A DNA stretch of 45,879 nt, from the IMG/VR virus record IMGVR_UViG_2541047916_000008; one strand, given 5' to 3'. Below are positions 1-45,503 of this stretch, one piece after another (positions within the stretch are counted from its first letter, which is position 1; each line of letters starts with the position of its first letter). The translations under genes were made by a program, and so were the position numbers. The notes beneath the pieces are model-generated. The model had not been told where the DNA came from and ran no database searches. It saw only the letters and a list, made by a program, of their open reading frames with translations. The DNA is from a virus. Taxonomy: Duplodnaviria; Heunggongvirae; Uroviricota; Caudoviricetes.

Positions 1-435
1 ATGCATCTAGAAGTCTCTATTAATCCAGAAACTAGAGCTGAATTTTTTGATGAAGTTTTTCTCAAATTCCCGGAGCTAGAGTCTTCTATCATTGATGATT
101 TCAAGAGATACAAAGCAACCGGTGAGCTTCCGCATTATTTCGGTAGGGACGTTGCGTATACTCAGCCTTATGGTGCTTTTCGGGCTGGGTTGATGCATAT
201 CCATCTTTGTCTACCGCCAAACAAGTTTCCCGAGAAACTTCCACAACCGGATAGGGTCTGCAAGAAAGGTGATCCTGATAATGATGCTTGTCTTGTGTAT
301 GTCCAAGGTGAGCTTTATGAGAATAAATATTCACTCATTGCTATTATGTATCCCGATGCACATGAAAAAGCAAGAAAACATGATGTGATGAGCTATCTGG
401 CGCGAATTGCCCAGAATTATAAAGATGAAAACTAA
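1..435 (+). CDS. YafO-family type II toxin (ribosome-dependent mRNA interferase family); start may be truncated by window edge
   Basis: Track ORF 1..435; motifs FGRD..Y, HIHL, LVYxQG, LIAI..P..H..AR match my recollection of E. coli YafO; cognate antitoxin would lie upstream, outside the window. Confidence 0.6.
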   Translation: MHLEVSINPETRAEFFDEVFLKFPELESSIIDDFKRYKATGELPHYFGRDVAYTQPYGAFRAGLMHIHLCLPPNKFPEKLPQPDRVCKKGDPDNDACLVYVQGELYENKYSLIAIMYPDAHEKARKHDVMSYLARIAQNYKDEN

Positions 436-456
436 CCCGCCGAAGCGGGTTTTTTG
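436..456 (+). terminator. Rho-independent terminator after toxin gene
   Basis: cccgc-cgaa-gcggg hairpin followed by a T-run, immediately after the stop at 435. Confidence 0.6.
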
Positions 457-461
457 TGAGA

Positions 462-761
462 TTAGTTATTTATTTTCCTATTTGTTCTTACCCTCTCCCA
501 TTCAATTCTGCCTTCTTCACGCCGTTTATCTATATATTCAGCAAGATCCTGAATGTTGATGCAGCGCTTTGCTTTCTGTGATGTACCAACACGATAAGTC
601 GGGATCGGCAACTGGCATGCATTTGCTTTCGCTTCTGCTGTGTTAGGGCTCATACCGAAATACTTTTGGCATACAGCTGACAGCTCAATGTTTGGGGTAT
701 TGAATTCAGCCATCAGTAAAAACAAGGTGTTCATAATTTTCTCCATCAAAACCGGCTGCAC
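462..761 (-). CDS. Small phage regulatory protein, PrtN-like (pyocin-activator family) DNA-binding protein; last gene of leftward early operon
   Basis: Track ORF; N-terminal MNTLFLLMAEF... and overall size recall PrtN-family proteins; assignment from memory only. Confidence 0.35.
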   Translation of the reverse strand: MQPVLMEKIMNTLFLLMAEFNTPNIELSAVCQKYFGMSPNTAEAKANACQLPIPTYRVGTSQKAKRCINIQDLAEYIDKRREEGRIEWERVRTNRKINN

Positions 762-770
762 CCGGGAAAA

Positions 771-1346
771 TCATAATTCTGTGCTGGTGGCAGGAATTAA
801 TTTCTGCCAGATAGCGGAAACATATTTTGCCTGATGACGGGCATCAGCCAGGGCGTTGTGCCGTTCGCCATCGAAAGGCATGTCCATTTTGGGGTCGAAT
901 CCGATGGAACGCCCAAGCGTAACGATCGTGCGTACATCGTGGTCATTCCAGTATGCCCACGGGCAGATTTGTCCTGCTCGCTCATAAGCTCCACGTAAAA
1001 TTACGTTGTCGAAGGTGGCTCCGTTACCCCAGACTTTTAAATATTTCGTATTGTCTGCGTGCCGGTTAATGAAATGATTTAGTTCTGAGAGAGCATCGCT
1101 GATCGACAAAGTATCATCAATACAGATTGCAGCTCGTGCTTCAGGGCTTTGTTTCAACCACCACAGGATGGTATCGCCGTCAGGTGTAGCTCCTAGCTTC
1201 ATAGCACTGTCCAGGCTAACAACCGTATAGAATTCTTGTCCGATGTCTCCGGTTTCTGGAGTGAAGAACACCGCGCCAATGGAAACGATCGGTGCATCCT
1301 TATTTTTCCCCATCGTCTCAAGGTCGATCATTAAGTTGTTCATCAC
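771..1346 (-). CDS. DEDDh/DnaQ-like 3'-5' exonuclease
   Basis: Track ORF; N-terminal IDLETMG (exo I motif), H..ALADA near C-terminus (exo III motif); ATGA overlap with upstream gene. Confidence 0.6.
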   Translation of the reverse strand: MMNNLMIDLETMGKNKDAPIVSIGAVFFTPETGDIGQEFYTVVSLDSAMKLGATPDGDTILWWLKQSPEARAAICIDDTLSISDALSELNHFINRHADNTKYLKVWGNGATFDNVILRGAYERAGQICPWAYWNDHDVRTIVTLGRSIGFDPKMDMPFDGERHNALADARHQAKYVSAIWQKLIPATSTEL

Positions 1347-2152
1347 TTCACCTCTTGTGATGGTTTTGCTGCAAAATACTCGATACCTTTATCCCAGATA
1401 GATTTTATGGTCGACCACGTGACTGGCACTTTAATTTCAATACGTCCGCTCCCGTCACAGGTATCGCAATCATCATCGCCAAAGCATTCCAGGCAGCTTA
1501 TAAACGTAGTTTCTGAAAATTCACCGGATAGCGCCCCCTTAGCGCCGTTCTCGGCTGTTAGTCTCTTCGGCACCATAACCCAACCATCCGGAGTTACCGG
1601 AGAGTTGCCAGACAGTGCGTTCTGCAATCGTTCCAGCTTAACGTATTCCTGAACCCTGTTTCCGTCGCACGCCTGAAGCCATTGCACAGCCTTTTGCGCA
1701 TCAGTGTGAAAGGTACAAGTGCGACCGTCATCAAATTGCATTTCGTAGAGGTCAGCAACCTGTTTAAACTGCGTTTGTGGCAACTTGTAAGCCTGGCTTG
1801 CAGGTACGGCACCATAGAGCATGGCAGCTCGGCAGGCGTTCCAGCCTTCATCAAAACCGACTATGCCATTATTTAAAGATGGACGAGCATCTGGCACCAC
1901 CGGCACTGGCTTGGCTATATATAGCGGCTGAACATACCAGCCCTTTGATAACCAACTGTCAGCAATGTTTTTACTCCTAGTTATTGCCGGAATACCTAAG
2001 CCATTGTCTGAATGCAGCCATGCCACCGGATCCTCTTCCAGCGATGCCAGAGCAATTTCATAAGCACGGCGCTCAACATTGTCTCGCACGTCCATGCTGC
2101 TGATTCGTTCTTTGATTTCTTTAATCAGTTCTTTATCGGTAAATGTGGTCAT
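1343..2152 (-). CDS. Hypothetical phage protein with C-terminal Cys-rich (CxxC...CDTCDGSG) zinc-ribbon-like motif
   Basis: Track ORF, translationally coupled on both sides; no family recognised. Confidence 0.45.
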   Translation of the reverse strand: MTTFTDKELIKEIKERISSMDVRDNVERRAYEIALASLEEDPVAWLHSDNGLGIPAITRSKNIADSWLSKGWYVQPLYIAKPVPVVPDARPSLNNGIVGFDEGWNACRAAMLYGAVPASQAYKLPQTQFKQVADLYEMQFDDGRTCTFHTDAQKAVQWLQACDGNRVQEYVKLERLQNALSGNSPVTPDGWVMVPKRLTAENGAKGALSGEFSETTFISCLECFGDDDCDTCDGSGRIEIKVPVTWSTIKSIWDKGIEYFAAKPSQEVK

Positions 2153-2514
2153 TATGCTCCAGCCTCCGGTGCTTTTGGCATTACTGCCCAGTGAGTGATA
2201 TTGACGTTTTCAAGGTCCCCGACCTGAAATGTCCACTGCCATTCTCCGGTTTCTTTTTGCCCCCATGTATACCAGAGAGAACGCCAGCCAATCAGCCAGC
2301 CTTCTCCATTAGCATCAAATAACAGAATACTTTCATTCGCTGGCGGCAGTTCAGCTGACACTGGTATTACTTTGTTTTCCAGTGCTGCACATTTAGCTTC
2401 AAGCGCATCAAATTTACGCACCAGGTACTCAGCATTTGTTTCATTCACTTTCAGATCTCGTGGTACACATTTCCCGCGAAGAAACCCTTCCATTTCGAAA
2501 ACATTCATGCGCAT
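2152..2514 (-). CDS. DUF551-like phage protein (YfdS-like, 120 aa)
   Basis: Track ORF; Trp-rich C-terminal half typical of DUF551; same length and position as yfdS in the CPS-53-type module. Confidence 0.45.
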   Translation of the reverse strand: MRMNVFEMEGFLRGKCVPRDLKVNETNAEYLVRKFDALEAKCAALENKVIPVSAELPPANESILLFDANGEGWLIGWRSLWYTWGQKETGEWQWTFQVGDLENVNITHWAVMPKAPEAGA

Positions 2515-3041
2515 TTGCGTAACTCCGATAACTCGTTAAAACGTTCCATAAACATCCCATAGGCATGGCCTGGCGACAGTGGAATAACTTTGAACATCTC
2601 TGTTGCCGGGATACCTTCCAGTACAGGCCAGAAAGAGCCATCATCAAGCCCGAGATCGCGGCGTTCGGTTGCCAGCATGATGAGATCGGCATATTTCACG
2701 GGCGTGCTCATAACCGGGGGTAACCCGTATTTCTCACGGATTACGGCGTCTATTTTTTCTTCCATCCGTTTATAGTCAGGAAGAAGGCGTTTCAGTGGCG
2801 CGGGGATGTCCTGGCAATACGCTTCTGTTGCATCATGCATTAATGCTTCAAAAGCAAATTCCTGCGGTACCAGCTGGCTGCAAAGCACCGCATGTTGGGC
2901 GACGCTGTAGAAATGTGAAAGATGTCCTGCAAAGCGACAGATATTTGAAAGAGAAACCGCGATATCGTTAATAACGATGTCGTCTTTATTTATCCTGTCA
3001 TAATAAAAATGCTTCCCGGAAAAAGTTTTAATAAATGACAT
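2505..3041 (-). CDS. HD-domain phosphohydrolase (YfdR-like 5'-deoxynucleotidase family)
   Basis: Track ORF 2505..3068; start moved to second Met (MSFIKTF) which has a GGAG RBS 7 nt upstream; HD-type metal-binding motifs (H..H...HD). Confidence 0.55.
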   Translation of the reverse strand: MSFIKTFSGKHFYYDRINKDDIVINDIAVSLSNICRFAGHLSHFYSVAQHAVLCSQLVPQEFAFEALMHDATEAYCQDIPAPLKRLLPDYKRMEEKIDAVIREKYGLPPVMSTPVKYADLIMLATERRDLGLDDGSFWPVLEGIPATEMFKVIPLSPGHAYGMFMERFNELSELRKCA

Positions 3042-3168
3042 TTTGTTCTCCACGTATATGCGCTGCACCGCGCTGAATTCTGGTAAAAGGAAGCCCTCAC
3101 CATCCGGCGATTATTGAGTTAATTACGTTTCCATAAATGCCCCCGCAGGGGCATTTGCAGTAATGAAA

Positions 3169-3993
3169 TCAGGCGGTGAAAGTACCAATAAAGGTTTCTA
3201 CTTTGCTGTCTTTGAATTTCTCAACAAGCAGATCACGAAATTCGTTAGCCATTTCTTCCTGCACTGCTTCCAGCTGAATAATGCGCAGAACCAGTACAGG
3301 ACGATCGCCAGTGATAATGCTGAGGCGTAATTTAAATGGACGTTCTTTCAGACCTTCAAACGGAACGCATTTAAATTCAAATGCCACTGGCATAATATCT
3401 TTGGTCTTCGCTTCGACAGACTCCATCAGGGAGCGTTTGCCGCTGAAGTCATTATCTTCAAAATCAGCGGTCTGGTTTGCTTCAATCGTGATTTTACGGA
3501 CAGCCGCAGCCGCTTTTGTTGCCTGAATAGCGTCACCATTAGCATCAAAGCCCACAAGGTAGTCGGCCCAGTCTTCAATCCATTCTGCCAGTGACTTCTG
3601 GGAGTTACGCTCGCCATTAACAGACAACAGAGCAGAGAACGGTGCTGTCTTTTTCAGTTTGAGAGTGGCGGTGTTATCTGCGTGACCTGGTTCATCAATA
3701 GTACCCAGGTTAATCACACTGACGGCTCGCATATTATCGGCATCGATAAAGCAGCGGGTGCCTTCATCTGCAAGATCTTTAGAATAACGGGTAAAGTCAT
3801 CGATGCTGGCAGTGGAAAGCGCACCACGGAAACGGAAGCGATTTAAATTAAATTTCTCCAGATCATGAATGCGGAAATTCTCAGGCAATGCCACAGCATC
3901 GGCACCAATCTTACTGATAATTTCATTAACACCCTGAGCAGAAATAAGGGCATGGATTTGATTAATTGCGGTTGCGTCTAAGTTCTGAGACAT
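3169..3993 (-). CDS. YfdQ-like (DUF2303) phage protein, 274 aa
   Basis: Track ORF; GAGG RBS upstream of ATG; length and context (next to HD hydrolase and 120-aa genes) match the yfdP-yfdQ-yfdR-yfdS module of E. coli cryptic prophage CPS-53, from memory. Confidence 0.5.
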
Positions 3994-4058
3994 AATAAGT
4001 CCTCACTATATAAAGATATTCAGTGATGAGATAAATAATCGGTTAATTAAGAACGATA

Positions 4059-4421
4059 TTAATGACCTGCTGCGCGGAGTTTTCCGTCAGGTTCACCGGC
4101 AAGAGTCAGTAATTGTCCCTGGTCTTCCTGCAGAATAGTCAGGCGACCACCGCGATTGACATACATCGGCGTTTCGGTGGTGTCTTCTTCGGAAATTTTC
4201 CCGCGGTTAGTCGGGCGAACATATGAGAGTTTGTGTTTGATTTTCACACGGTTCTCATCAAATGGTTCGATTTCCAGGTTGAGCGAGACCTTACCTTTGG
4301 TTTTCGTGTTCATCACACCGGAAGCGACTTCACTGAGAACAGCGCCGATTTTGGTTTCAAATACGCCGCCGTCCAGCTCCCCGATAAATGCCTGCACATC
4401 AGTACTGCGTTCGCTAGCCAT
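4059..4421 (-). CDS. Hypothetical 120-aa early protein (YfdP-like); first gene of leftward operon
   Basis: Track ORF 4059..4652 trimmed to internal Met (MASERST) preceded by GAGGAG RBS; upstream part of track ORF overlaps RNA hairpins and looks non-coding. Confidence 0.5.
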   Translation of the reverse strand: MASERSTDVQAFIGELDGGVFETKIGAVLSEVASGVMNTKTKGKVSLNLEIEPFDENRVKIKHKLSYVRPTNRGKISEEDTTETPMYVNRGGRLTILQEDQGQLLTLAGEPDGKLRAAGH

Positions 4422-5123: not shown

Positions 5124-5816
5124 TTAATTGTGTCGCTTAAGGGTCTGTGACTGACTGATTAAGACCTTTCCAAAGACCATAAACCGGTGTTCGTTTTCGC
5201 TGGTAATTCCCCATTCGCGGTAAATCTGATTATCAGAAATTACCAGCAGTTTATCAGGTATCATTTGCAGTCGTTTGACGTAAATTTTATCATCAAAACC
5301 AAATACATATATACCATCCCCATCAAACTGATTGATACTGATATCAACGAAGATGAGATCTCCTGGCTCAATGGTTGGACACATACTGTCCCCACGAACG
5401 TTGATAACTTTAATGTGATTTGCTGGTCGTCCACCAAACATCGATACAGCATTATCAGTTCTGTATTCAATGGCATGAATCACATCAATGACATCACCGC
5501 CCTGGATAAGGCCATTTCCCGCACTGGCACTGACATCCAGCATTTCAATACGGAATACATCCTTCACCTGCGCAACATCCTCACTAATACTGTTTTTACA
5601 TACAGTATTACTTTTGAGGTCTGAGGTAAAGAGATCAGCAATATCAACACCTAAGCTCCTGGCAATATTACTCAGGGCTTGTTCAGTGAATTGTTTCTGC
5701 TTACCTGTTTCGAGGCGCGAGATATTCGCCGCATCCACTCCTATTGCTTCAGCGAGATCGGCGATTTTCATGTTCTTCGCCTGGCGAAGTTGTCTGACTC
5801 GATTTCCTATGTTCAT
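5124..5816 (-). CDS. CI-like prophage repressor (HTH_XRE N-terminal domain plus S24 LexA-like autopeptidase C-terminal domain)
   Basis: Track ORF; HTH motif IADLAEAIGVDAANISRLETG; C-terminal G-DSM...K motif of S24 peptidases; divergent from cro-like gene. Confidence 0.8.
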   Translation of the reverse strand: MNIGNRVRQLRQAKNMKIADLAEAIGVDAANISRLETGKQKQFTEQALSNIARSLGVDIADLFTSDLKSNTVCKNSISEDVAQVKDVFRIEMLDVSASAGNGLIQGGDVIDVIHAIEYRTDNAVSMFGGRPANHIKVINVRGDSMCPTIEPGDLIFVDISINQFDGDGIYVFGFDDKIYVKRLQMIPDKLLVISDNQIYREWGITSENEHRFMVFGKVLISQSQTLKRHN

Positions 5817-6174: not shown

Positions 6175-6718
6175 GCATCATTGGAAAGTGGAAAAACAAC
6201 CTGAGTGGTACGTGAAAGCTGTCAGAAAAACTATCGCGGCATTGCCTGGGGGTTACGCTGAAGCTGCTGACTGGCTGGATGTAACAGAGAACGCTTTATT
6301 CAACCGCCTTCGTGCAGATGGCGATCAGATTTTCCCGCTGGGATGGGCAATGGTTTTACAGCGCGCGGCTGGCACTCACTACATTGCGGATGCTGTCGCA
6401 CAGTCTGCTGGTGGGGTGTTCGTATCGCTTCCTGAAATTGAGGAAGTAGAGAACGCCGATATAAACCAGCGCCTGCTGGAAGTCATCGAACAGATCGGGA
6501 ATTACTCAAAGCAGATTCGTTCGGCAATCGAAGATGGGGTCGTGGAGCCACACGAGCAGACAGCAATTAATGATGAGTTGTATCTGTCAATTTCGAAGCT
6601 CCAGGAGCATGCAGCACTGGTCTACAAAATCTTCTGCGCTCCAGAAAAGAGTGACGCCCGCGAGTGTGCAGCTCCGGGCGTCGTGGCGTTTTGTGTCTGT
6701 GGAGAAACTAACGCATGA
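6167..6718 (+). CDS. CII-like phage regulatory protein (CP76-type family), tentative
   Basis: Track ORF immediately after cro-like gene; size (about 180 aa) and position fit enterobacterial CII/CP76-family proteins; family assignment from memory. Confidence 0.4.
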   Translation: MGKHHWKVEKQPEWYVKAVRKTIAALPGGYAEAADWLDVTENALFNRLRADGDQIFPLGWAMVLQRAAGTHYIADAVAQSAGGVFVSLPEIEEVENADINQRLLEVIEQIGNYSKQIRSAIEDGVVEPHEQTAINDELYLSISKLQEHAALVYKIFCAPEKSDARECAAPGVVAFCVCGETNA

Positions 6719-6863
6719 ACAGTTTAACGGCAAATAACCGTTTGTCGCAACAGCTGGTGGTCAGTGTCGCTGAACACCTGTTGTTACGGTATGAATGCAG
6801 ATTACCAAATCACCTGGCTGTAAGTAACCACAGAGAACTTTACCTGACTGTGGGGGGCGAGTT

Positions 6864-7043
6864 GTGCAGGAACTTAACCGCTGGTTTCGTGACGGAAGAG
6901 GGCTTTATGTCCATGTTATTCGTTGGGAGCCAGAAACACAGCGCGTTATCTATCTTCGCAAAGACTACCCGCATGAGTGCTTTAGTCCTTTGTGGAAATT
7001 CAGGCATGATTTTGTTGAGTGTGAAGGACCACCAGCACATTGA
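6864..7043 (+). CDS. Small hypothetical ORF (59 aa, GTG start) not in the 60-aa track
   Basis: Own translation of the frame offset from the track ORF: VQELNRWFRDGRGLYVHVIRWEPETQRVIYLRKDYPHECFSPLWKFRHDFVECEGPPAH; G-rich RBS-like run upstream; terminator about 90 bp downstream. Confidence 0.3.
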   Translation: MQELNRWFRDGRGLYVHVIRWEPETQRVIYLRKDYPHECFSPLWKFRHDFVECEGPPAH

Positions 7044-7128
7044 TTCTGCCATTCCGGGACGTTACACTGTTCAGGCACCTTATAAAGCGGGTGCCGGGCG
7101 TGGAAACCCGGAATTCACCAAAGCGCAC

Positions 7129-7151
7129 AACCGCGCTCTTGCGGTTTTTTT
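7129..7151 (+). terminator. Rho-independent terminator inside the apparent N-terminal extension of the Rha ORF
   Basis: aaccgc-gctctt-gcggtt hairpin followed by T7. Confidence 0.55.
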
Positions 7152-7320
7152 GTGTAATGAGCAGCATTACGCCCAAATTATGGTGGGGCGTGCAGGGCCA
7201 ACTTCGGTTGGGCCGGGTTCTTTGGTGACCGGTATTTCCACCCCTGTACGTCTCACCACCAATAAGGTCGTGGAAAGCCTTGGTGGTGAGTTATTAAAAA
7301 TCACCAAAGAGGCTGCCATC

Positions 7321-7866
7321 ATGGCTACGATCCCAACCCTCACTCAACCTGAAATTGCCATCGTTGATGGTCAGGCTGTTACTTCATCCCTGGCTGTTGC
7401 CAACTTCTTCTCCAAACGTCATGACGATGTACTGAAAAAGATCCGCACGCTTGAATGCTCTGCATCATTCACTGCCCGCAATTTTTCGGTGAGTGATTAC
7501 ACCGATTGCACAGGCCGCAAACTACCTTGCTATCAAATAACCCGCGACGGCTTTGCGTTTCTTGCTATGGGGTTCACGGGTAAACGTGCTGCCCAGTTCA
7601 AAGAGGCATACATCAATGCCTTTAACCAGATGGAGAAACAGCTTTCAAATCCCTCTGTACTGAGCGACGTTGCACATAACGCCAGCGTTCTCTATTCCTA
7701 CATTTCATCAATTCATCAGGTCTGGCTGCAGCAGCTTTATCCTATGTTGGCAAAAGCCGAATCTCCGCTGGCTGTTAGCTTGTATGACTATATTAATGAT
7801 GCTTCGGCACTGGCCTGCCTCATAAATTTGTCGCTGAACCCTTCAGAGGTAAGGGGGCGCAAATGA
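7321..7866 (+). CDS. Rha-family phage regulatory protein
   Basis: Track ORF 6715..7866 trimmed to Met at 7321 (AGAGG RBS); N-terminal Phage_pRha-like segment (VDGQAVTSSLAVANFFSKRHDDVLKKIR). Confidence 0.6.
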   Translation: MATIPTLTQPEIAIVDGQAVTSSLAVANFFSKRHDDVLKKIRTLECSASFTARNFSVSDYTDCTGRKLPCYQITRDGFAFLAMGFTGKRAAQFKEAYINAFNQMEKQLSNPSVLSDVAHNASVLYSYISSIHQVWLQQLYPMLAKAESPLAVSLYDYINDASALACLINLSLNPSEVRGRK

Positions 7867-14119: not shown

Positions 14120-15172
14120 ATGAAAAATACTGTAAAAATAAACAGTGTTGATTTAATCAACGCTGATTGCCTGCATTTTATTCAGTCCCTGCCTGATGAT
14201 TCCATTGACCTGATTGTTACCGATCCGCCTTACTTCAAGGTGAAACCCAACGGCTGGGACAATCAGTGGAAAGGGGACGAAGATTACCTTAAGTGGCTGG
14301 ACCACTGTCTGGCCCAGTTCTGGCGGGTGTTGAAACCTGCCGGAAGCCTTTACCTGTTCTGTGGGCATCGCCTGGCATCTGATATTGAGATCATGATGCG
14401 TGAACGTTTCAACGTGCTTAACCATATCATCTGGGCGAAGCCGTCCGGACGTTGGAATGGGTGTAATAAAGAAAGTCTGCGCGCATATTTTCCTGCCACA
14501 GAGCGCGTTCTGTTTGCTGAACATTACCAGGGGCCATATCGCGGCAAAAGTGACGGCTATGCGGCAAAAGAAAGGGAACTCAAACAGCACATAATGGCAC
14601 CGCTGATATCGTATTTCAGGGATGCTCGTGCCGAACTGGGTATAACGGCAAAACAGATTGCCGAAGCCACTGGTAAGAAAAATATGGTTTCCCACTGGTT
14701 TGGTGCCAGTCAGTGGCAGTTGCCGAATGAGGCTGACTACCGGAAGTTGCAGGCACTGTTTTCCCGTATAGCGGCAGAGAAGTTTCAGGAAAAACAACTG
14801 GAACAACCACACCACCAGCTGGTGGCATCTTATGATTCACTGAATCGCAAATATTATGAATTGCTGGATGAGTTTAAAACTCTCCGGCGCTATTTCTCCG
14901 TATCAGTTTCCGTGCCTTATACCGACGTCTGGATGCATAAACCCGTTCAGTTCTACCCGGGGAAACATCCGTGTGAGAAACCGGCGGATATGCTCAGGCA
15001 AATAATCAATGCCAGTAGTCGACCAGGTGATCTGGTTGCTGATTTTTTTATGGGCTCCGGTTCCACAATAAAAGCAGCAATGGCGCTGGGGCGTCGGGCC
15101 TTAGGTGTTGAGCTTGAGTCAGAGCGGTTTAACCAGACAGTGAAAGAGATAAACGAGCTGGTGGGGAAATAA
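14120..15172 (+). CDS. DNA methyltransferase, beta-class N6A/N4C type (DPPY motif IV N-terminal, FxGSG motif I C-terminal); no adjacent restriction gene
   Basis: Track ORF; [10 protein letters not shown] near N-terminus and DFFMGSGST near C-terminus. Confidence 0.7.
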
Positions 15173-39168: not shown

Positions 39169-39194
39169 TTAGCCAGGTAACACAGTGTTATTAC

Positions 39195-39222
39195 AGCCCG
39201 CCGGTTCAGGCGGGCTTTTTTG
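39195..39222 (+). terminator. Terminator after lom
   Basis: agcccgcc-ggttcagg-cgggct hairpin followed by T6. Confidence 0.55.
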
Positions 39223-39232
39223 TGGAGTGGAT

Positions 39233-41590
39233 ATGGCAGCAGTAAAAATCTCAGGTGTGCTGAAAGATGGTGCGGGAAAACCAATACAGAACTGCACTAT
39301 TCAACTGAAGGCAAAGCGTAACAGCACCACGGTACTGGTGAACACGGTGGCCTCTGAAAATCCGGATGAAGCCGGGCGTTACAGCATGGATGTTGAGTAT
39401 GGCCAGTACAGCGTCACCCTGCTGGTTGAAGGTTTTCCGCCTTCACATGCCGGGACCATTACCGTCTATGAAGGCTCCAGACCCGGTACGCTGAATGATT
39501 TTCTCGGTGCCATGACGGAAGATGACGTCATGCCGGAGGCATTGCGTCGTTTTGAGGCAATGGTGGAAGAAGCGGCACGCAACGCCGAAGCCGCCTCTCA
39601 GAGCGCAGCGGCGGCAAAGAAATCCGAAACGGCTGCGGCATCATCGAAGAACGCGGCGAAAACCTCAGAAACGAATGCAGCTAACAGCGCACAGGCGGCA
39701 GCGGCCTCGCAGACTGCATCGGCAAACTCCGCGACAGCAGCCAAAAAATCAGAAACCAACGCGAAAAATAGCGAGACAGCCGCAAAGACGAGCGAAACCA
39801 ACGCAAAGTCCAGCCAGACGGCAGCGAAAACCAGCGAAACGAATGCCAAAGCCAGTGAAACTGCGGCGAAAAATAGCCAGAATGCAGCAGCCGAAAGCGA
39901 GAGTGCGGCAGCTGGTTCTGCGACTTCAGCAGCTGGATCAGCAACTGCTGCGGCTAACAGCCAGAAAGCAGCGAAGACGAGCGAAACTAACGCAAAGTCC
40001 AGCCAGACGGCAGCGAAGACCAGCGAAACGAATGCCAAAGCCAGCGAAACTGCGGCGAAAAACAGTCAGGATGCAGCAGCCCAAAGCGAGAGTGCTGCAG
40101 CTGGTTCTGCAACAGCTGCAGCTAATAGCCAAAAAGCTGCAAAAACCAGTGAAACTAACGCAAAGACGAGTGAAACAAAAGCAGCAGCCAGCGAGACAGA
40201 AGCAACGTCAGCCGCAACAAGAGCAGAGAATGCAGCCCGGATTGCAGAAGATGCCGCTGATCCTGCTTCTGTCCCTCCGCTTCCTGATATCTGGCTACCC
40301 TTGAATGATTCTCTGGAAGCGATAACAGGGTATGCCCCGGGCTATAAAACAATAACCATCGGCAGTGATGAAATAACAATGCCTGTTAATGGCATATGCC
40401 AATTTAGCCGGGCTTCATCTGCAACGTATATTGATAAGTCCGGGCATATTACCGTGGCAGGGAATAACGTTCCTCGTTTTGAAAAATATGGTTTGCTGAT
40501 AGAGAATCAGCGAACAAACATGTTCGTAAATAGTTTTAATCCTGATGCCTGGAATAAAAGCGGTGGTATATCTGTAACATCATCAACAGATGAATTTGAG
40601 TTTAAATATGGACGTTTCACGGTAGGAAGCGATATAGCAGGAACGACAACAGGGAGAAATATATGCACAGTTGCTGGTAACAAAGGCATAGATGTGACTG
40701 GCGATGATCAGTACAGTAAAGGTCCGTATGTTACCGCGTCATTCAGGGTAAGAAGTGATCTCAATGTTCGCGCACGTATCCGTTTTGAACGGTATAACTC
40801 GGAAGGATACACCTTCCTTTGCGACGCCTATTTGTCATTACAGACCCATGAACTACAAATTACTGGTGGCAATGCCCAGCTATTAACAGCAAACTTTGAA
40901 ATCGATCCTGGTAGTGGATGGATATACTTTCAGGCAACACTGAAATGTCTGCCAGAATGGGGAATGGTTGGTACGCAGCTGCAAATTGCAGCCGACAGAG
41001 CTGTGGGGTCTTTTGCAACAGGTGACTGGATAGAAGTAACCACCCCGCAATTCGAGTATGGTGCTTGTGCAACTTCCTTCATCATAACGACAACAGAGCC
41101 AGCGACTCGTGCATCAGATTTATGTAAATTTCCGCTGATGAAAAATATGTATACCATGCCTTTTACGTTCATGGTGGAAGTCCATAAAAACTGGTTTATT
41201 TCTCATAATGCTGCACCGCGTGTCATTGATTCAGAAAATCACCAGTCCGGAGGCCCATTTATTATGGGGTTTGGTTCTTCTGGAACTATTAGTCAGGACG
41301 GTTATTCGTATTGCGATATAGGCGGGGCTAACCGACGTGTATATGAATCATGCGGAGTAAGGGATCTCGTTATGGGATTCAGGGTTAAGGCTGACGGCAT
41401 GACATGCTCATTTGCAAATAAGCATATAAGCACTGAAACAAAAACAGTATGGAAATATATTCGTGAAGCAGCCGTGATTCGTATCGGGGGGCAAACGACG
41501 ACAGGATTACGACACCTTAATGGTCATATAAAAAACCTCCGTTTCTGGAACAGAGCATTGTCAGATACGCAGCTTAAGGAATACGTATAA
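39233..41590 (+). CDS. stf: Side tail fibre protein (Stf-like N-terminus, Ala/Ser/Thr-rich repeat region, C-terminal lectin-like domain)
   Basis: Track ORF 39185..41590 trimmed to MAAVKISGVLKDGAGKP (matches lambda Stf N-terminus); C-terminus ends with NLRFWNRALSDTQL, a LamG/ConA-like signature from memory. Confidence 0.75.
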   Translation: MAAVKISGVLKDGAGKPIQNCTIQLKAKRNSTTVLVNTVASENPDEAGRYSMDVEYGQYSVTLLVEGFPPSHAGTITVYEGSRPGTLNDFLGAMTEDDVMPEALRRFEAMVEEAARNAEAASQSAAAAKKSETAAASSKNAAKTSETNAANSAQAAAASQTASANSATAAKKSETNAKNSETAAKTSETNAKSSQTAAKTSETNAKASETAAKNSQNAAAESESAAAGSATSAAGSATAAANSQKAAKTSETNAKSSQTAAKTSETNAKASETAAKNSQDAAAQSESAAAGSATAAANSQKAAKTSETNAKTSETKAAASETEATSAATRAENAARIAEDAADPASVPPLPDIWLPLNDSLEAITGYAPGYKTITIGSDEITMPVNGICQFSRASSATYIDKSGHITVAGNNVPRFEKYGLLIENQRTNMFVNSFNPDAWNKSGGISVTSSTDEFEFKYGRFTVGSDIAGTTTGRNICTVAGNKGIDVTGDDQYSKGPYVTASFRVRSDLNVRARIRFERYNSEGYTFLCDAYLSLQTHELQITGGNAQLLTANFEIDPGSGWIYFQATLKCLPEWGMVGTQLQIAADRAVGSFATGDWIEVTTPQFEYGACATSFIITTTEPATRASDLCKFPLMKNMYTMPFTFMVEVHKNWFISHNAAPRVIDSENHQSGGPFIMGFGSSGTISQDGYSYCDIGGANRRVYESCGVRDLVMGFRVKADGMTCSFANKHISTETKTVWKYIREAAVIRIGGQTTTGLRHLNGHIKNLRFWNRALSDTQLKEYV
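39785..40145. repeat. Tandem duplication (about 170-190 bp units, roughly 90 percent identical) inside stf
   Basis: aagacgagcgaaac(c/t)aacgcaaagtccagccagacggcagcgaa(a/g)accagcgaaacgaatgccaaagccag... occurs twice in tandem (starts about 39785 and 39974); wider low-complexity zone 39590-40230. Confidence 0.7.
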
Positions 41591-42558: not shown

Positions 42559-42852
42559 ATGAAAATGGATATAACACCTTTCCTTCATGCACTTTGTGCT
42601 GTGGCTGCGCAGGTACTGGTTGGTCTTTTTACCGGAAACTGGGCTTACGGGGCGATAGCCGGTTGTACATTCTTCATTGCGCGGGAACACACCCAGGCAG
42701 AATATCGCTGGATTGAAATGTTCGGGCATGGCAAGCGTATGAATATGCCGTGGTGGGGCGGTTTTGATCCACGTGCATGGGATGTGGCAAGCCTGATGGA
42801 TTTTGCTGTGCCGGTGGTGGCGTGTCTGCTGATCTGGATGTTGATCCGTTAA
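42559..42852 (+). CDS. Small membrane protein (two predicted TM helices), unknown function
   Basis: Track ORF; hydrophobic segments at both ends. Confidence 0.4.
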   Translation: MKMDITPFLHALCAVAAQVLVGLFTGNWAYGAIAGCTFFIAREHTQAEYRWIEMFGHGKRMNMPWWGGFDPRAWDVASLMDFAVPVVACLLIWMLIR

Positions 42853-42867
42853 ATATAAAAAGTAAAA

Positions 42868-42902
42868 AGCCGCAGTAACTTGTCATGATAGGATACTGCG
42901 GC
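42868..42902 (-). terminator. Terminator of dinI-like gene (may act bidirectionally)
   Basis: agccgcagta ... tactgcggct stem; A-rich tract on plus strand gives a U-run after the hairpin on the minus transcript. Confidence 0.45.
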
Positions 42903-42969
42903 TGGCTGGTTAACTTTCGATAGTGCGAGTATTGAATGATTTCCAGCCGTTACCGATTTTACGTGTTAA

Positions 42970-43218
42970 TTAGTGAACAAACCACTCGTCAGCAGACTCC
43001 CAGGTATCTTTCAGAGTTTCCTGAACAAAAGTTTTAGCTGAATCTTTATCGGCGGTGCGCGTAACAGAAAGGCCATCGTTGCTGGTGGCTTTTACGATCA
43101 CCTCTACATCGTCATAACGTTTACTGATGCGTCGGGTTAATTCTTCCTTTAACGCATCCACAGCACCGGTTGGCATTTTAGTCATTTTTTCTTTGGCTAT
43201 GCAGATTTCAATACGCAT
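42970..43218 (-). CDS. DinI-family DNA-damage-inducible protein
   Basis: Track ORF, 82 aa; MRIEI.IAK...P.GA.DAL..EL..RI......E.........LSV......D......[12 protein letters not shown] matches DinI. Confidence 0.7.
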
Positions 43219-43231
43219 AAAAGTCCCTCTA

Positions 43232-43279
43232 TACTGTGTTTGTATACAGTGTTATTTTTGACTGTATGGATAAACAGTG
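43232..43279. promoter_or_regulatory. Two tandem LexA (SOS) boxes upstream of dinI-like gene
   Basis: tACTGTgtttgtatACAGtg (43232-43251) and gACTGTatggataaACAGtg (43260-43279); both CTGT-N8-ACAG. Confidence 0.65.
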
Positions 43280-44377
43280 TCAAGAGGTCTTATTTCTGCT
43301 CTTTTGGAGCTCTTCAAAACGATTATGTAAAGATTTCGGATACAGTTCGGTATATACCTGCCATAGCACGTTTAATGAACGATGCCCTGTAACTTGGGCG
43401 ACTTCCTCAATACTAAAACCAGCCTCAAATAAGCGACTTGCCCCTTCTCTACGCAAATCATGGTATCGCAGATCTTTAATACCTAATTTGCTTCTTACCC
43501 TCTGAAATCCCGCAGTAACAGAAGTGCTGTTATATGGAAAAATGAATTCCGATTTTTGGGGCTGTCGTTGGACGATATCCCAGGCTTCCCCAAGCAAGGC
43601 TACTTTCATGTGGTTGCCTTCCTTTTTGCGTGGATCTTTCCTGTCTCTTACGAGTATAGATTTTTGTTCCTGGTCGAGATCTTCCCATCGTAACCGGCAT
43701 ACTTCTCCGATTCGCATACAGGACCACACAGAAAATTTGAGGATATCAACGAACGGAATTTTTGAGCATTTATGTGTAGATCGTTGTTGAAGACCTTCAA
43801 TGAGCATGTCCAGTTCATCAGATGCCGGTCTACGATTACGACGGTTTGATTTACCAATCAAACCAAGTTTAAGTAGATATGGACGAGCACTTTTCGCCGG
43901 GTTTGATGTGTAATTAATTCCGTATACAGGTTTGGCCGCATCCAGAACACTGCCAAGATAACTAACATCGTGGCTGACTGTTGCTGGACCTGCACCAGCG
44001 TTGTTTCTTAGCCTACAATGTTCAATTACGTCATTTTCTGTCAGTTCGGATAGTTTGATCGCGGAGATGTCACTATCCATAAGCAGTTCCAGCACATATC
44101 TTTTAGTACGACCTGCTTTACCTCCGGCATTTGGGTCATTTAAATATTTGTGTAGTAAGTCACGGACTGTAAGTCCGTCAACTGCATTTGATGATGGAAT
44201 GCCATATAGATCTAATTCCATCACTTTCTGTGTACCCCATGTTTTGGCATGGGCATGTTTAGGGAATGTTTTGCTTTCCCTGTAAGTGATAACACCTTTT
44301 TCTTTGATAATCACATTACAGCGATAGCGTGGTGTGCCATCGGATTTTAGTCGTTTCTCTATGTTATAGTACGCCAT
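43280..44377 (-). CDS. Tyrosine recombinase (phage integrase), divergent from dusA
   Basis: Track ORF, 365 aa; C-terminal R...HDLR...Y catalytic pattern (RYHDLRREGASR ... LWQVYTELY); AT-rich. Confidence 0.8.
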   Translation of the reverse strand: MAYYNIEKRLKSDGTPRYRCNVIIKEKGVITYRESKTFPKHAHAKTWGTQKVMELDLYGIPSSNAVDGLTVRDLLHKYLNDPNAGGKAGRTKRYVLELLMDSDISAIKLSELTENDVIEHCRLRNNAGAGPATVSHDVSYLGSVLDAAKPVYGINYTSNPAKSARPYLLKLGLIGKSNRRNRRPASDELDMLIEGLQQRSTHKCSKIPFVDILKFSVWSCMRIGEVCRLRWEDLDQEQKSILVRDRKDPRKKEGNHMKVALLGEAWDIVQRQPQKSEFIFPYNSTSVTAGFQRVRSKLGIKDLRYHDLRREGASRLFEAGFSIEEVAQVTGHRSLNVLWQVYTELYPKSLHNRFEELQKSRNKTS

Positions 44378-44395
44378 TACACGACCTCGTTATTT

Positions 44396-44432
44396 CGGGT
44401 TCCCATAAATCGTGGGAACCTGTGCGGGAACC
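44396..44432. promoter_or_regulatory. GGGAACC repeat cluster (one inverted pair plus one direct copy) between integrase and dusA; candidate integrase/att-associated or promoter element
   Basis: ggttccca-taaatcg-tgggaacc palindrome (44398-44420) then cgggaacc (44425-44432). Confidence 0.35.
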
Positions 44433-44465
44433 TAACGCGAGAAAAATAGCCTGAAATGTTCAAAA

Positions 44466-45503
44466 ATGCACGATAATCCTGAAACACAGAAAACTAATCA
44501 AACCAGCGCGATGCCTGAGAAAACTGGCGCTTACGGGAGTTCTCGGTTTAGCATTGCTCCTATGCTTGACTGGACGGACAGACATTGCCGTTATTTCCTG
44601 CGTCTGCTTTCCCGCAATACGTTGCTGTATACCGAAATGGTGACCACAGGGGCGATTATTCACGGTAAAGGTGATTACCTGGCGTACAGTGAAGAAGAAC
44701 ATCCGGTAGCGTTGCAACTCGGGGGTAGCGATCCGGCGGCGCTGGCACAGTGTGCGAAGCTGGCAGAAGCGCGCGGATATGATGAGATCAACCTGAATGT
44801 CGGCTGCCCGTCTGACCGGGTGCAGAACGGCATGTTTGGTGCGTGTCTGATGGGTAATGCGCAGCTGGTTGCCGACTGCGTGAAAGCGATGCGCGATGTG
44901 GTGTCGATTCCGGTGACGGTGAAAACGCGTATTGGCATCGATGATCAGGACAGCTATGAATTTCTCTGCGATTTCATCAACACCGTTTCCGGCAAAGGTG
45001 AGTGTGAGATGTTCATCATCCACGCACGTAAAGCCTGGCTTTCTGGGTTAAGTCCGAAAGAAAACCGTGAGATCCCGCCGCTCGATTATCCGCGTGTGTA
45101 TCAACTGAAGCGTGACTTTCCGCATCTGACGATGTCGATTAACGGTGGTATCAAGTCGCTGGAAGAAGCTAAAGCGCATTTGCAACATATGGATGGCGTG
45201 ATGGTCGGGCGCGAGGCGTATCAGAATCCGGGGATTCTGGCGGCGGTAGACCGAGAGATTTTTGGTTCCTCGGATACCGATGCCGATCCGGTGGCGGTAG
45301 TGCGCGCCATGTATCCGTACATTGAGCGTGAACTCAGCCAGGGTACGTATCTCGGCCATATTACCCGGCATATGCTGGGCTTGTTCCAGGGTATTCCTGG
45401 CGCGCGGCAGTGGCGGCGTTATTTAAGTGAAAATGCCCATAAAGCGGGTGCAGACATTAATGTGCTGGAACACGCGCTCAAACTGGTGGCGGATAAGCGT
45501 TAA
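44466..45503 (+). CDS. dusA: tRNA-dihydrouridine synthase A
   Basis: Track ORF, 345 aa; DusA-type TIM-barrel flavoenzyme sequence (NLNVGCPS, catalytic Cys, FMN-binding motifs); followed by pspG as in E. coli. Confidence 0.9.

Follow-up and report, generated by a model that had tools for sequence, protein, structure and literature searches.

A DinI-like gene behind two predicted LexA boxes at the end of a dusA-integrating prophage

Prophage dinI homologues under LexA control have already been published for the Gifsy prophages, in which these genes are LexA-regulated and damage-induced (PMC3121763; PMC8072944, Merida-Floriano et al. 2021). Prophage dinI homologues have been tested in a single published case, in Gifsy-1 and Gifsy-3, which use antirepressors and not repressor cleavage for their induction; the non-polar deletion of the genes left this induction unaffected (PMC3121763). 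The biochemistry of DinI is two-sided. The protein stabilises RecA filaments and uses the same RecA groove elements as lambda CI (PMC9926225), and the inhibition of coprotease activity upon DinI overproduction is reported at second hand (Yasuda 1998, cited in PMC10575684). SOS promoters with several operators have also been described. In Salmonella, the LexA boxes of lexA are located 6 and 27 nt from the ATG, and those of recN 8, 26, and 48 nt from the ATG (PMC8072944).

In the present study, we analysed a DinI-like gene with its flanking signals (the cassette) in a 45,879-nt stretch of viral DNA (the window). The cassette is real but ordinary because approximately one in three complete E. coli genomes (1,687 of 5,426; 31%) carries it as an annotated feature. 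Up to seven copies are present per genome; many defective prophages retain the cassette, and Stx phages also carry it. The only twist in comparison with the published prophage homologues is the presence of two operators of moderate strength; 71 of 78 other phage DinI homologues have one strong box. The searchable literature on the cassette and on "DinI-like" phage genes contained annotations and associations only, and no expression or ChIP data for the cassette.

The DinI-like gene and its transcription unit

The cassette lies at the end of the prophage and runs antisense to the tail-fibre genes. Its features and those of its upstream neighbourhood are as follows.

42855..42903, minus strand: predicted intrinsic terminator of the cassette, with a GC-rich stem of 10 bp (42903-42894 with 42877-42868) and then UUUUUACUUUUU
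42970..43218, minus strand: gene for the DinI-like protein of 82 aa, from the ORF list; ATG start (43218-43216), TAA stop, product beginning MRIE
43224..43229, minus strand: Shine-Dalgarno sequence GAGGGA, 5 nt before the ATG, read from the sequence and kept in related loci
43232..43251, unstranded: predicted proximal LexA box (box 1), core CTGT-N8-ACAG at 43234-43249, heterology index (HI) 7.53, spanning the expected transcription start
43254..43259, minus strand: -10 hexamer AAAAAT from the promoter scan, within the 8-bp gap between the LexA boxes
43260..43279, unstranded: predicted distal LexA box (box 2), core CTGT-N8-ACAG at 43262-43277, HI 8.54, filling the -35/-10 spacer
43278..43283, minus strand: -35 hexamer TTGACA from the promoter scan, containing the integrase stop TGA (43282-43280)
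43280..44377, minus strand: tyrosine integrase of the dusA-integrating prophage (Pfam Phage_integrase, E=7.5e-21), the upstream neighbour on the same strand
44466-45503: dusA, following the integrase

The product of the gene almost certainly belongs to the DinI family, as judged from profile and sequence comparisons. The Pfam DinI profile (PF06183) matched the ORF over its whole length (positions 1-63 of 63) with 70.9 bits against a cut-off of 24.2 (E=1.1e-19), and PHROG 189 ("RecA filament binding protein DinI") matched it with E=5.7e-31, although only positions 71-149 of the 151 in this profile were covered. The protein is a small single-domain protein with the size typical of the family (82 aa; approximately 80 aa in the family). 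It is 46% identical to E. coli K-12 DinI (BLASTP) and aligned with the solved DinI structures PDB 1GHH/7YWA over residues 1-81 (phmmer, E=3.7e-13). The Pfam match and this identity bear out the original prediction of a dinI-like gene. However, the protein did not reach the NCBIfam DinI equivalog NF007893 (73 bits against a cut-off of 111). Since this score is below the equivalog level, the protein is a paralogue of E. coli DinI, in line with the RefSeq name of its relatives ("DinI-like family protein"), and its function may have diverged.

E. coli DinI contacts RecA through a hydrophobic pocket (L13, L21, W71, W77, and F78) and an acidic patch (E24, E69, and D76) (Gao et al. 2023, PMC9926225). 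The corresponding residues in the window protein are M15, L23, W73, W79, and F80 for the pocket and E26, D71, and E78 for the patch; five of these eight contacts are identical and three are conservatively replaced. On the basis of its sequence, the protein probably acts on RecA*.

The predicted sigma-70 promoter, TTGACA-18-AAAAAT, had 10 of 12 matches in the promoter scan, with a weak -10 (4/6) and an 18-bp spacer, and a promoter is annotated at the equivalent place in the GenBank record of Enterobacteria phage mEp460. Two alternative promoters, ATAACA-16-TATAGA and TTTATC-17-TACTGT, were both weaker, and the former would also take the Shine-Dalgarno sequence out of the transcript. The RNA fold of the terminator had an energy of -30.1 kcal/mol (z = -3.55 against shuffles), and the convergent ORF at 42559-42852 probably shares this terminator. 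The ORF list and sequence reading revealed no second ORF in the approximately 65 nt between the stop codon (42970) and the stem (42903). Since the hairpin terminator follows the gene, the gene is predicted to be monocistronic.

No terminator was found on reading the sequence between the integrase and the cassette, and nothing convincing as attL or a 5' fragment of dusA was found in the first 4 kb of the window. The upstream flank varies among copies of the cassette: int in the window and in mEp460, IS1 in L048, and ssrA in O157:H7. In the copies with another upstream flank, the homology starts at the -35 (CTTGA). These differing flanks indicate that the cassette is an autonomous accessory unit (moron) with its own predicted promoter and terminator. 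The proximity to the integrase that was initially pointed out is present in the window; however, it is incidental, the same cassette and boxes being found with other upstream flanks.

Two LexA boxes over the predicted promoter

In agreement with the original prediction, two CTGT-N8-ACAG sites are present 28 bp apart upstream of the dinI-like start. The 20-mer of box 1 is TACTGTGTTTGTATACAGTG on the plus strand (CACTGTATACAAACACAGTA in gene orientation) and that of box 2 is GACTGTATGGATAAACAGTG (CACTGTTTATCCATACAGTC in gene orientation). The spacing of 28 bp is measured from start to start and leaves the 8-bp gap, so that the boxes bracket the -10 of the predicted promoter. Box 1 ends 13 nt from the ATG. 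The last base of the distal 20-mer, 43279, is one position away from the integrase stop, which the box abuts as described at the outset.

Both sites were scored on the HI scale, on which a perfect consensus is 0. The matrix consisted of symmetric penalties recovered by non-negative regression from 140 sequence/HI pairs in the PSOSP supplement (PMC12527982), with a maximum error of 4e-5; positions 3-5 and 16-18 (CTG/CAG) were not estimable from this set, and both boxes have CTG/CAG. The HI values in PMC11228462 stem from another table (Courcelle 2001) and are not comparable with the recovered matrix. The proven operators of lexA (6.40 and 8.32) and uvrD (8.80) provide reference points on this scale, and the LexA-binding cluster in the PSOSP table reaches approximately 13.6 (PMC12527982). 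The scores of the two boxes are within the LexA-binding range, as anticipated, and comparable to those of SOS boxes proven in E. coli (lexA, uvrA, and uvrD). However, the description of the boxes as "consensus" was overstated: the core is consensus, mismatches are present in the centre and flanks, and both sites fall short of the full consensus. On these scores, both are predicted operators of moderate strength.

The window contained five CTGT-N8-ACAG matches against 0.68 expected, and at least five were found in 0 of 100 shuffles. Four sites had an HI of 9 or lower, whereas 300 first-order Markov simulations gave an expectation of 0.013 such sites. The match at 6818 was ruled out as a LexA box (HI 16.6).

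The promoter, both boxes, and the gene were found together in all 55 related viral contigs. Box 1 was kept in 55/55 of these loci with an HI of 5.2-7.5, and box 2 in 55/55 with an HI of 4.9-8.3; the window variant of box 2 (8.54) was the weakest seen. The cassette and its boxes were also present in O157:H7 prophages and in the FORC_028 copies. In a frameshifted pseudogene copy, the boxes were decaying (box 1, HI 12.2). We consider the DinI-like gene very likely to be LexA-repressed, judging from these sites. The SOS control originally proposed is supported by boxes that lie over a predicted sigma-70 promoter and are kept in every relative examined, whereas we only infer that this control is "tight". 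The operator centres are 28 bp apart (approximately 2.7 helical turns) and, thus, on different helix faces. Because of this arrangement, the cooperative binding of LexA to the two boxes is not assured.

Possible roles of the DinI-like protein

Two further features of the window need to be considered with regard to the role of the protein.

5124..5816, minus strand: CI-type prophage repressor (HTH families and Pfam Peptidase_S24, E=6e-19)
6715-7866: antirepressor-type module with an isrK/C4 RNA and a Rha/Ash ORF

The counterparts of the repressor are annotated cI in PhiR40_1, mEp460, and SfII. We presume that it is a RecA*-dependent cleavage substrate whose processing the DinI-like protein could modulate, and its S24 autocleavage domain provides the protein with a potential target. 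The reading that we favour, with moderate confidence, is that of a moron: an autonomous prophage cassette, inducible by the SOS response, whose DinI-family product would bind RecA filaments and may temper repressor cleavage. In the lysogen, host LexA dimers on both operators, over the spacer and the transcription start, would occlude the promoter. Upon DNA damage, RecA* would trigger LexA autocleavage, and the promoter would fire to yield a short monocistronic mRNA ending at the hairpin. The DinI-like protein would then use its hydrophobic pocket and acidic patch to dock in the RecA-ssDNA filament groove, stabilising the filaments and competing with other proteins that bind there.

Among the substrates of RecA*, LexA is a good one, and CI-type repressors and UmuD are poorer. 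Given this difference, the likeliest net effect of extra DinI-like protein would be to temper or delay the processing of CI and UmuD while SOS stays on. Tempered CI cleavage would raise the damage threshold for the induction of the prophage itself and of co-resident lambdoid prophages. The sequence analysis shows the gene family, the operators, the layout of promoter and terminator, the conservation, and the modularity of the cassette; we infer that LexA binds in vivo, that the protein binds RecA, and in which direction the effect goes. Structural considerations make an effect on the cleavage of the repressor plausible; that the protein measurably tempers this cleavage is a tentative proposal about which we are more doubtful than confident. 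The host carries its own SOS-induced dinI, and the prophage copy may be redundant with it.

The alternative with the best claim to attention, although we consider it unlikely, is that the cassette is a moron benefiting the host. The DinI-like protein would either restrict the processing of UmuD and SOS mutagenesis or, through more stable RecA filaments, aid repair and survival when the lysogen meets DNA damage or quinolones; it would have no meaningful role in the prophage switch. The layout is typical of a moron (own promoter, own terminator, location at the end of the prophage antisense to late genes), and many defective prophages retain copies, with a maximum of seven per genome. Moreover, a DinI-like gene is among the horizontally acquired genes associated with the evolution of quinolone resistance (PMC10575684), and the Gifsy dinI deletions leave induction unchanged (PMC3121763). 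However, an SOS-inducible DinI is already encoded by the host, and a benefit to the host is compatible with an effect on induction, the two not being mutually exclusive.

The protein might instead promote induction, with stabilised RecA* filaments prolonging the SOS signal and favouring CI cleavage in a positive feedback, which we consider distinctly improbable. DinI lengthens and stabilises RecA filaments and reportedly assists filament formation early in SOS (PMC9926225), and the filament-binding residues are conserved in the window protein. However, DinI occupies groove elements that CI needs and, thus, should compete with CI; the inhibition of the coprotease by overproduced DinI, as relayed in PMC10575684 from Yasuda 1998, also argues against this possibility.

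A very improbable alternative is that the gene constitutes all or part of an antirepressor system under LexA control, similar to Tum of coliphage 186 or Gifsy dinI-gfoA, and inactivates the repressor by binding. LexA-controlled DinI-like sequences are linked to antirepressors in 186, PSP3, Fels-2, and Gifsy (PMC3121763), and the partial coverage of PHROG 189 (positions 71-149 of 151) would also speak for this reading. The anatomy of the cassette largely refutes this reading: there is no second ORF in the short interval before the terminator stem, the activity in PSP3 resides in the non-DinI half (PMC3121763), a repressor with an S24 domain needs no antirepressor for SOS induction, and the window has a separate antirepressor-type module at 6715-7866. 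The proposal that the LexA sites serve the integrase, for example as a roadblock ending int transcripts, or are chance matches has next to no probability. In its favour, the distal box abuts the int stop and no int-dinI terminator is present. However, it is refuted for practical purposes: the same two boxes accompany the gene without int upstream, bracket the -10 of the dinI promoter, and are kept in 55/55 loci, and 0.013 sites are expected by chance per window.

LexA boxes were also observed elsewhere in this phage group. All 99 distinct cI sequences in a set of relatives collected with a divergent query placed first had a predicted box inside the linker-coding part of cI. This box is kept at the DNA level throughout the repressor family and possibly lies over an internal promoter, TTTACn-17-TACTGT. 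A predicted LexA operator is also conserved over codons 3-9 of the late-region DNA methylase. The cI-internal box is more intriguing than the DinI-like cassette itself. We speculate, as an outside possibility, that the cassette is one arm of a multi-point LexA wiring (dinI-like promoter, cI, and methylase), through which the phage would read the LexA level directly and not only through RecA*-driven CI cleavage, with the DinI-like protein as a dedicated brake on CI-type cleavage. If so, this brake would act on the CI-type repressors of its own or rival prophages and, thus, constitute an SOS timer setting the induction threshold.

At present, the cassette is of little importance; it extends the SOS regulon of prophage-rich E. 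coli by one member with good in-silico support. The present results document a two-operator promoter for a very common cassette, unlike other dinI genes. If the proposed tempering of RecA*-dependent repressor cleavage occurs, the copy number of the cassette could affect the antibiotic induction of Stx and lambdoid prophages, which would be medically relevant.

Comparison with known systems

The closest counterpart of the cassette is in Enterobacteria phage mEp460 (JQ182728), in which mEp460_021, annotated DinI-like, is the same cassette beside the same integrase. Equivalents are present in PhiR40_1, phiSTEC1575-Stx2k, cdtI, 2H10, and many Stx phages. The cassettes of mEp460 and these equivalents, at 94-99.8% nucleotide identity, show essentially no difference from that in the window; the LexA boxes are unannotated in their GenBank records.

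Similar to the window gene, dinI of E. coli K-12 (b1061) is monocistronic, with a LexA box near the start codon, a downstream terminator, and shared RecA-contact residues. The proteins are also of similar length (81 aa in K-12 and 82 aa in the window). However, K-12 dinI is a core gene with a single box, ACCTGTATAAATAACCAGTA (HI 6.24), whereas the window gene belongs to a prophage and has two boxes.

The Gifsy dinI genes share with the window gene a prophage-borne DinI homologue behind a LexA box, and their SOS induction is experimental. In contrast to the window gene, they have a single strong box with an HI of 3.9-5.3, located 19 nt from the ATG, and are the first in an operon with an antirepressor (gfoA/gftA) and irsA, a partner that the window gene lacks. 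They are located beside replication genes, whereas the window cassette is at the prophage end, and the Gifsy repressors are uncleaved, whereas the repressor of the window prophage has Peptidase_S24.

Tum of coliphage 186, which is split in PSP3 and Fels-2, is likewise LexA-controlled and has a DinI-like sequence (PMC3121763). However, Tum is a protein of 146 aa in which an antirepressor half is fused to a DinI-like half, whereas the window gene encodes the DinI-like domain alone. With respect to the promoter, lexA and recN resemble the window cassette in having more than one LexA box at one promoter. Their boxes are spaced by 18-22 bp, whereas those of the window cassette are spaced by 28 bp and bracket the -10.

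The DinI-like gene and its promoter

The dinI-like gene of the original prediction was recovered as an 82-codon ORF (42970-43218, minus strand) whose protein starts with MRIE. Its DinI-like identity was also supported: the protein matched the whole Pfam DinI profile (E=1e-19), PHROG 189 ("RecA filament binding protein DinI"), and the solved E. coli DinI structures 1GHH and 7YWA (E=3.7e-13), and is 46% identical to E. coli DinI. In the RecA-DinI cryo-EM structure, RecA F203 enters a hydrophobic DinI pocket (L13, L21, W71, W77, and F78), and an acidic DinI patch (E24, E69, and D76) faces RecA K232, R243, and K245 (PMC9926225). The equivalents in the window protein are M15, L23, W73, W79, and F80 for the pocket and E26, D71, and E78 for the patch. 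Since the protein missed the NCBI DinI equivalog cut-off (73 bits vs 111), it is considered a paralogue of DinI.

As predicted, two tandem CTGT-N8-ACAG sites (43234-43249 and 43262-43277), spaced 28 bp, lie upstream of this ORF, and the distal 20-mer (43260-43279) ends one base short of the integrase stop codon (43282-43280). The window contains five CTGT-N8-ACAG matches vs 0.68 expected. The features are as follows, the promoter elements in the orientation of the gene.

43283-43278, minus strand: -35 element TTGACA, which includes the integrase stop codon
43279-43260: box 2, the distal LexA box, occupying the promoter spacer
43259-43254, minus strand: -10 element AAAAAT
43251-43232: box 1, the proximal LexA box, two bases past the -10 element and over the expected start site
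43229-43224, minus strand: Shine-Dalgarno sequence GAGGGA
43218, minus strand: start codon ATG
43280-44377, minus strand: tyrosine integrase gene
44466-45503: dusA, after the integrase gene

A promoter scan predicted TTGACA-18-AAAAAT with 10/12 matches, and the GenBank record of mEp460 annotates a promoter at the equivalent place. Because the -10 element occupies the 8-bp gap between the operators, LexA on either box should exclude RNA polymerase. A terminator is predicted at 42903-42855, approximately 65 nt past the dinI-like stop codon, and consists of a 10-bp GC-rich hairpin (-30.1 kcal/mol, z = -3.55) followed by a U-run. No ORF fits into the ~65 nt between the stop codon and hairpin, and the gene is, therefore, predicted to be monocistronic. 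On the strand opposite the dinI 3' end and its terminator, RefSeq annotates related genomes with an 81-nt pseudogene fragment named "capsid protein" (4044-4124 of the related locus L002, corresponding to approximately 42893-42973 of the window, plus strand); this annotation is probably spurious.

Since dusA follows the integrase gene, the window represents an mEp460-type lambdoid prophage inserted at dusA. The 88 nt between the integrase and dusA starts (44377 and 44466; intervening 44378-44465) are the spacing that a dusA-specific integrase would be expected to show. A search of the window's first 4 kb (1-4000) for an attL repeat or a displaced 5' fragment of dusA was negative, although a fragment of this kind is annotated in the related prophage of AR_0085.

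Strength and conservation of the two operators

The boxes were scored by the heterology index (HI), in which a perfect consensus is 0 and higher values are weaker. E. coli candidate boxes with HI values were taken from the supplement of PMC12527982. HI is additive over positions; therefore, the penalty matrix was recoverable by non-negative least squares on 140 sequence/HI pairs, and the recovered matrix was symmetric and fitted exactly (maximum error 4e-5). Box 1 scored 7.53 and box 2 8.54. These values fall among those tabulated for the lexA operators (6.40 and 8.32), uvrA (6.98), and uvrD (8.80), and the cluster matching experimentally bound sites extends to HI ~13.6 (PMC12527982). The boxes are thus predicted to be good, but ordinary SOS boxes: the scores lie in the SOS-box range, while the description "consensus" did not hold. 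Four sites with HI ≤9 occur in the window vs 0.013 per window in simulations that matched its composition.

The 551-bp region shares 99.8% identity with "DinI-like family protein" and integrase loci of many E. coli genomes, and also matches phages PhiR40_1, mEp460, and phiSTEC1575-Stx2k. The gene and promoter were present at ≥80% coverage in 1,687/5,426 complete E. coli genomes, and single genomes carry as many as seven copies. Both boxes were kept in every IMG/VR locus whose sequence extends into the upstream region (55/55; HI 5.2-7.5 for box 1 and 4.9-8.3 for box 2), and the weakest box 2 variant is that of the window. In a frameshifted copy of the cassette, box 1 had decayed (HI 12.2). In copies flanked upstream by something other than the integrase gene (IS1 in the related locus L048; ssrA in O157:H7 and FORC_028), homology starts at CTTGA of the -35 element. 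Together with its promoter, both operators, and terminator, the gene therefore appears to behave as an autonomous moron, and its position beside the integrase gene is incidental. Boxes that serve the integrase, or that arose by chance, were rejected by these conservation and context data.

A second scan retrieved 78 phage homologues of DinI that are more distantly related (49-56% identity to K-12 DinI). Exactly one box was found in 71, mostly strong (HI 0.95-6.8) and 14-22 nt from the start codon, and none in seven. Six boxless homologues (L096, L108, L110, L140, L148, and L162) have a TTG start or lie directly behind another ORF; upstream of the seventh (L146) the sequence is unrelated. In some of the six, the C-terminus of the upstream ORF also looks DinI-like (e.g., ...DQWLISDN and ...ADQWLVIDI), which may reflect Tum-like genes in tandem or split form.

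Other LexA boxes and possible regulatory modules

The site TACTGTTTTTACATACAGTA (HI 3.31, 5588-5607), which is the window's strongest LexA box, lies inside the cI-like ORF (5124-5816, minus strand) at nt 210-229, in the interdomain linker between HTH and S24. A box with HI ≤9 occurred at exactly the same position in 99/99 distinct family sequences, which reach down to ~69% amino-acid identity and include mEp460, SfII, ST64B, Flotzy, Klebsiella phages, and IMG/VR loci (retrieved loci L165-L168 and L169-L328). Across 29 non-redundant sequences, TACTGTAT and CAGT were invariant, while the encoded residues varied (TV[CYHF][KEINL][NSYHDT]S) and the flanking linker was hypervariable; third-codon positions carried 1.90 bits within the box vs 0.87 over the 69 codons before it. 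This pattern shows conservation of the nucleotide sequence itself and indicates selection for a LexA site inside cI. The box overlaps a possible sense promoter, TTTACn-17-TACTGT. Our literature search found no report of a LexA box inside cI.

Another box, TACTGTAAAAATAAACAGTG (HI 6.84, 14128-14147), covers codons 3-9 of an N6/N4 DNA methyltransferase gene (14120-15172, plus strand). It was kept at the same place in 74-83% identical homologues (HI 5.5-7.8; 1720a-02 5.5, phiP27 7.8, and Hafnia phage yong2 6.1; loci L003, at 16528, and L332-L335), and a 66% identical Klebsiella phage homologue has a weaker box at the matching place (HI 10.7). No predicted sigma-70 promoter directly precedes this gene.

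Rfam matches above the gathering score were obtained for two RNAs inside the mechanical ORF 6715-7866, preceding a Rha/Ash-type domain reading frame.

7075-7151, plus strand: isrK Hfq-binding RNA (67 bits)
7176-7263, plus strand: C4 antisense RNA (83.6 bits)

This locus resembles an antirepressor module of the P1/P7 ImmI type, under RNA control and next to a cleavable CI, and the 383-aa ORF is, therefore, probably not one gene. An extended, highly repetitive stretch rich in Ala, Ser, Thr, and Glu (AAKTSETNAK-type repeats) lies within the side tail-fibre ORF (39185-41590, plus strand). In the related AR_0085 genome, this gene is annotated as a pseudogene in two pieces, which suggests variation driven by the repeats or a problem of assembly.

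Proposed action and comparison with known dinI genes

The prophage repressor (5124-5816, minus strand) has HTH and Peptidase_S24 domains, and induction is thus expected to proceed via autocleavage stimulated by activated RecA filaments (RecA*). In the best-supported reading, LexA cleavage would switch the cassette on and the DinI-like product would then sit on RecA* filaments. We tentatively consider tempered processing of CI and UmuD to be the most likely consequence. A purely host-directed benefit is a less probable alternative, and filament stabilisation that favours induction is distinctly improbable; a product without measurable effect is a further rival. A Tum- or Gifsy-type antirepressor role was rejected because there is no partner ORF and the repressor is cleavable; moreover, the antirepressor activity of PSP3 lies outside its DinI-like half.

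LexA repression of prophage dinI homologues was demonstrated experimentally in Gifsy prophages (PMC3121763) and confirmed genome-wide in Salmonella (PMC8072944). The window's very gene is already annotated in mEp460 and RefSeq; our literature search found no paper describing the LexA boxes of the cassette or testing its function. We propose the cassette as an in-silico-supported addition to LexA-controlled prophage dinI homologues, with a variant operator layout, the sole structural novelty identified in it. A single box precedes K-12 dinI (HI 6.24) and likewise the Gifsy homologues (HI 3.9-5.3), whereas the window cassette has two (HI 7.53 and 8.54). Since K-12, Gifsy, and 71/78 phage homologues have one box, two moderate operators bracketing the -10 element appear to be a peculiarity of this cassette lineage.
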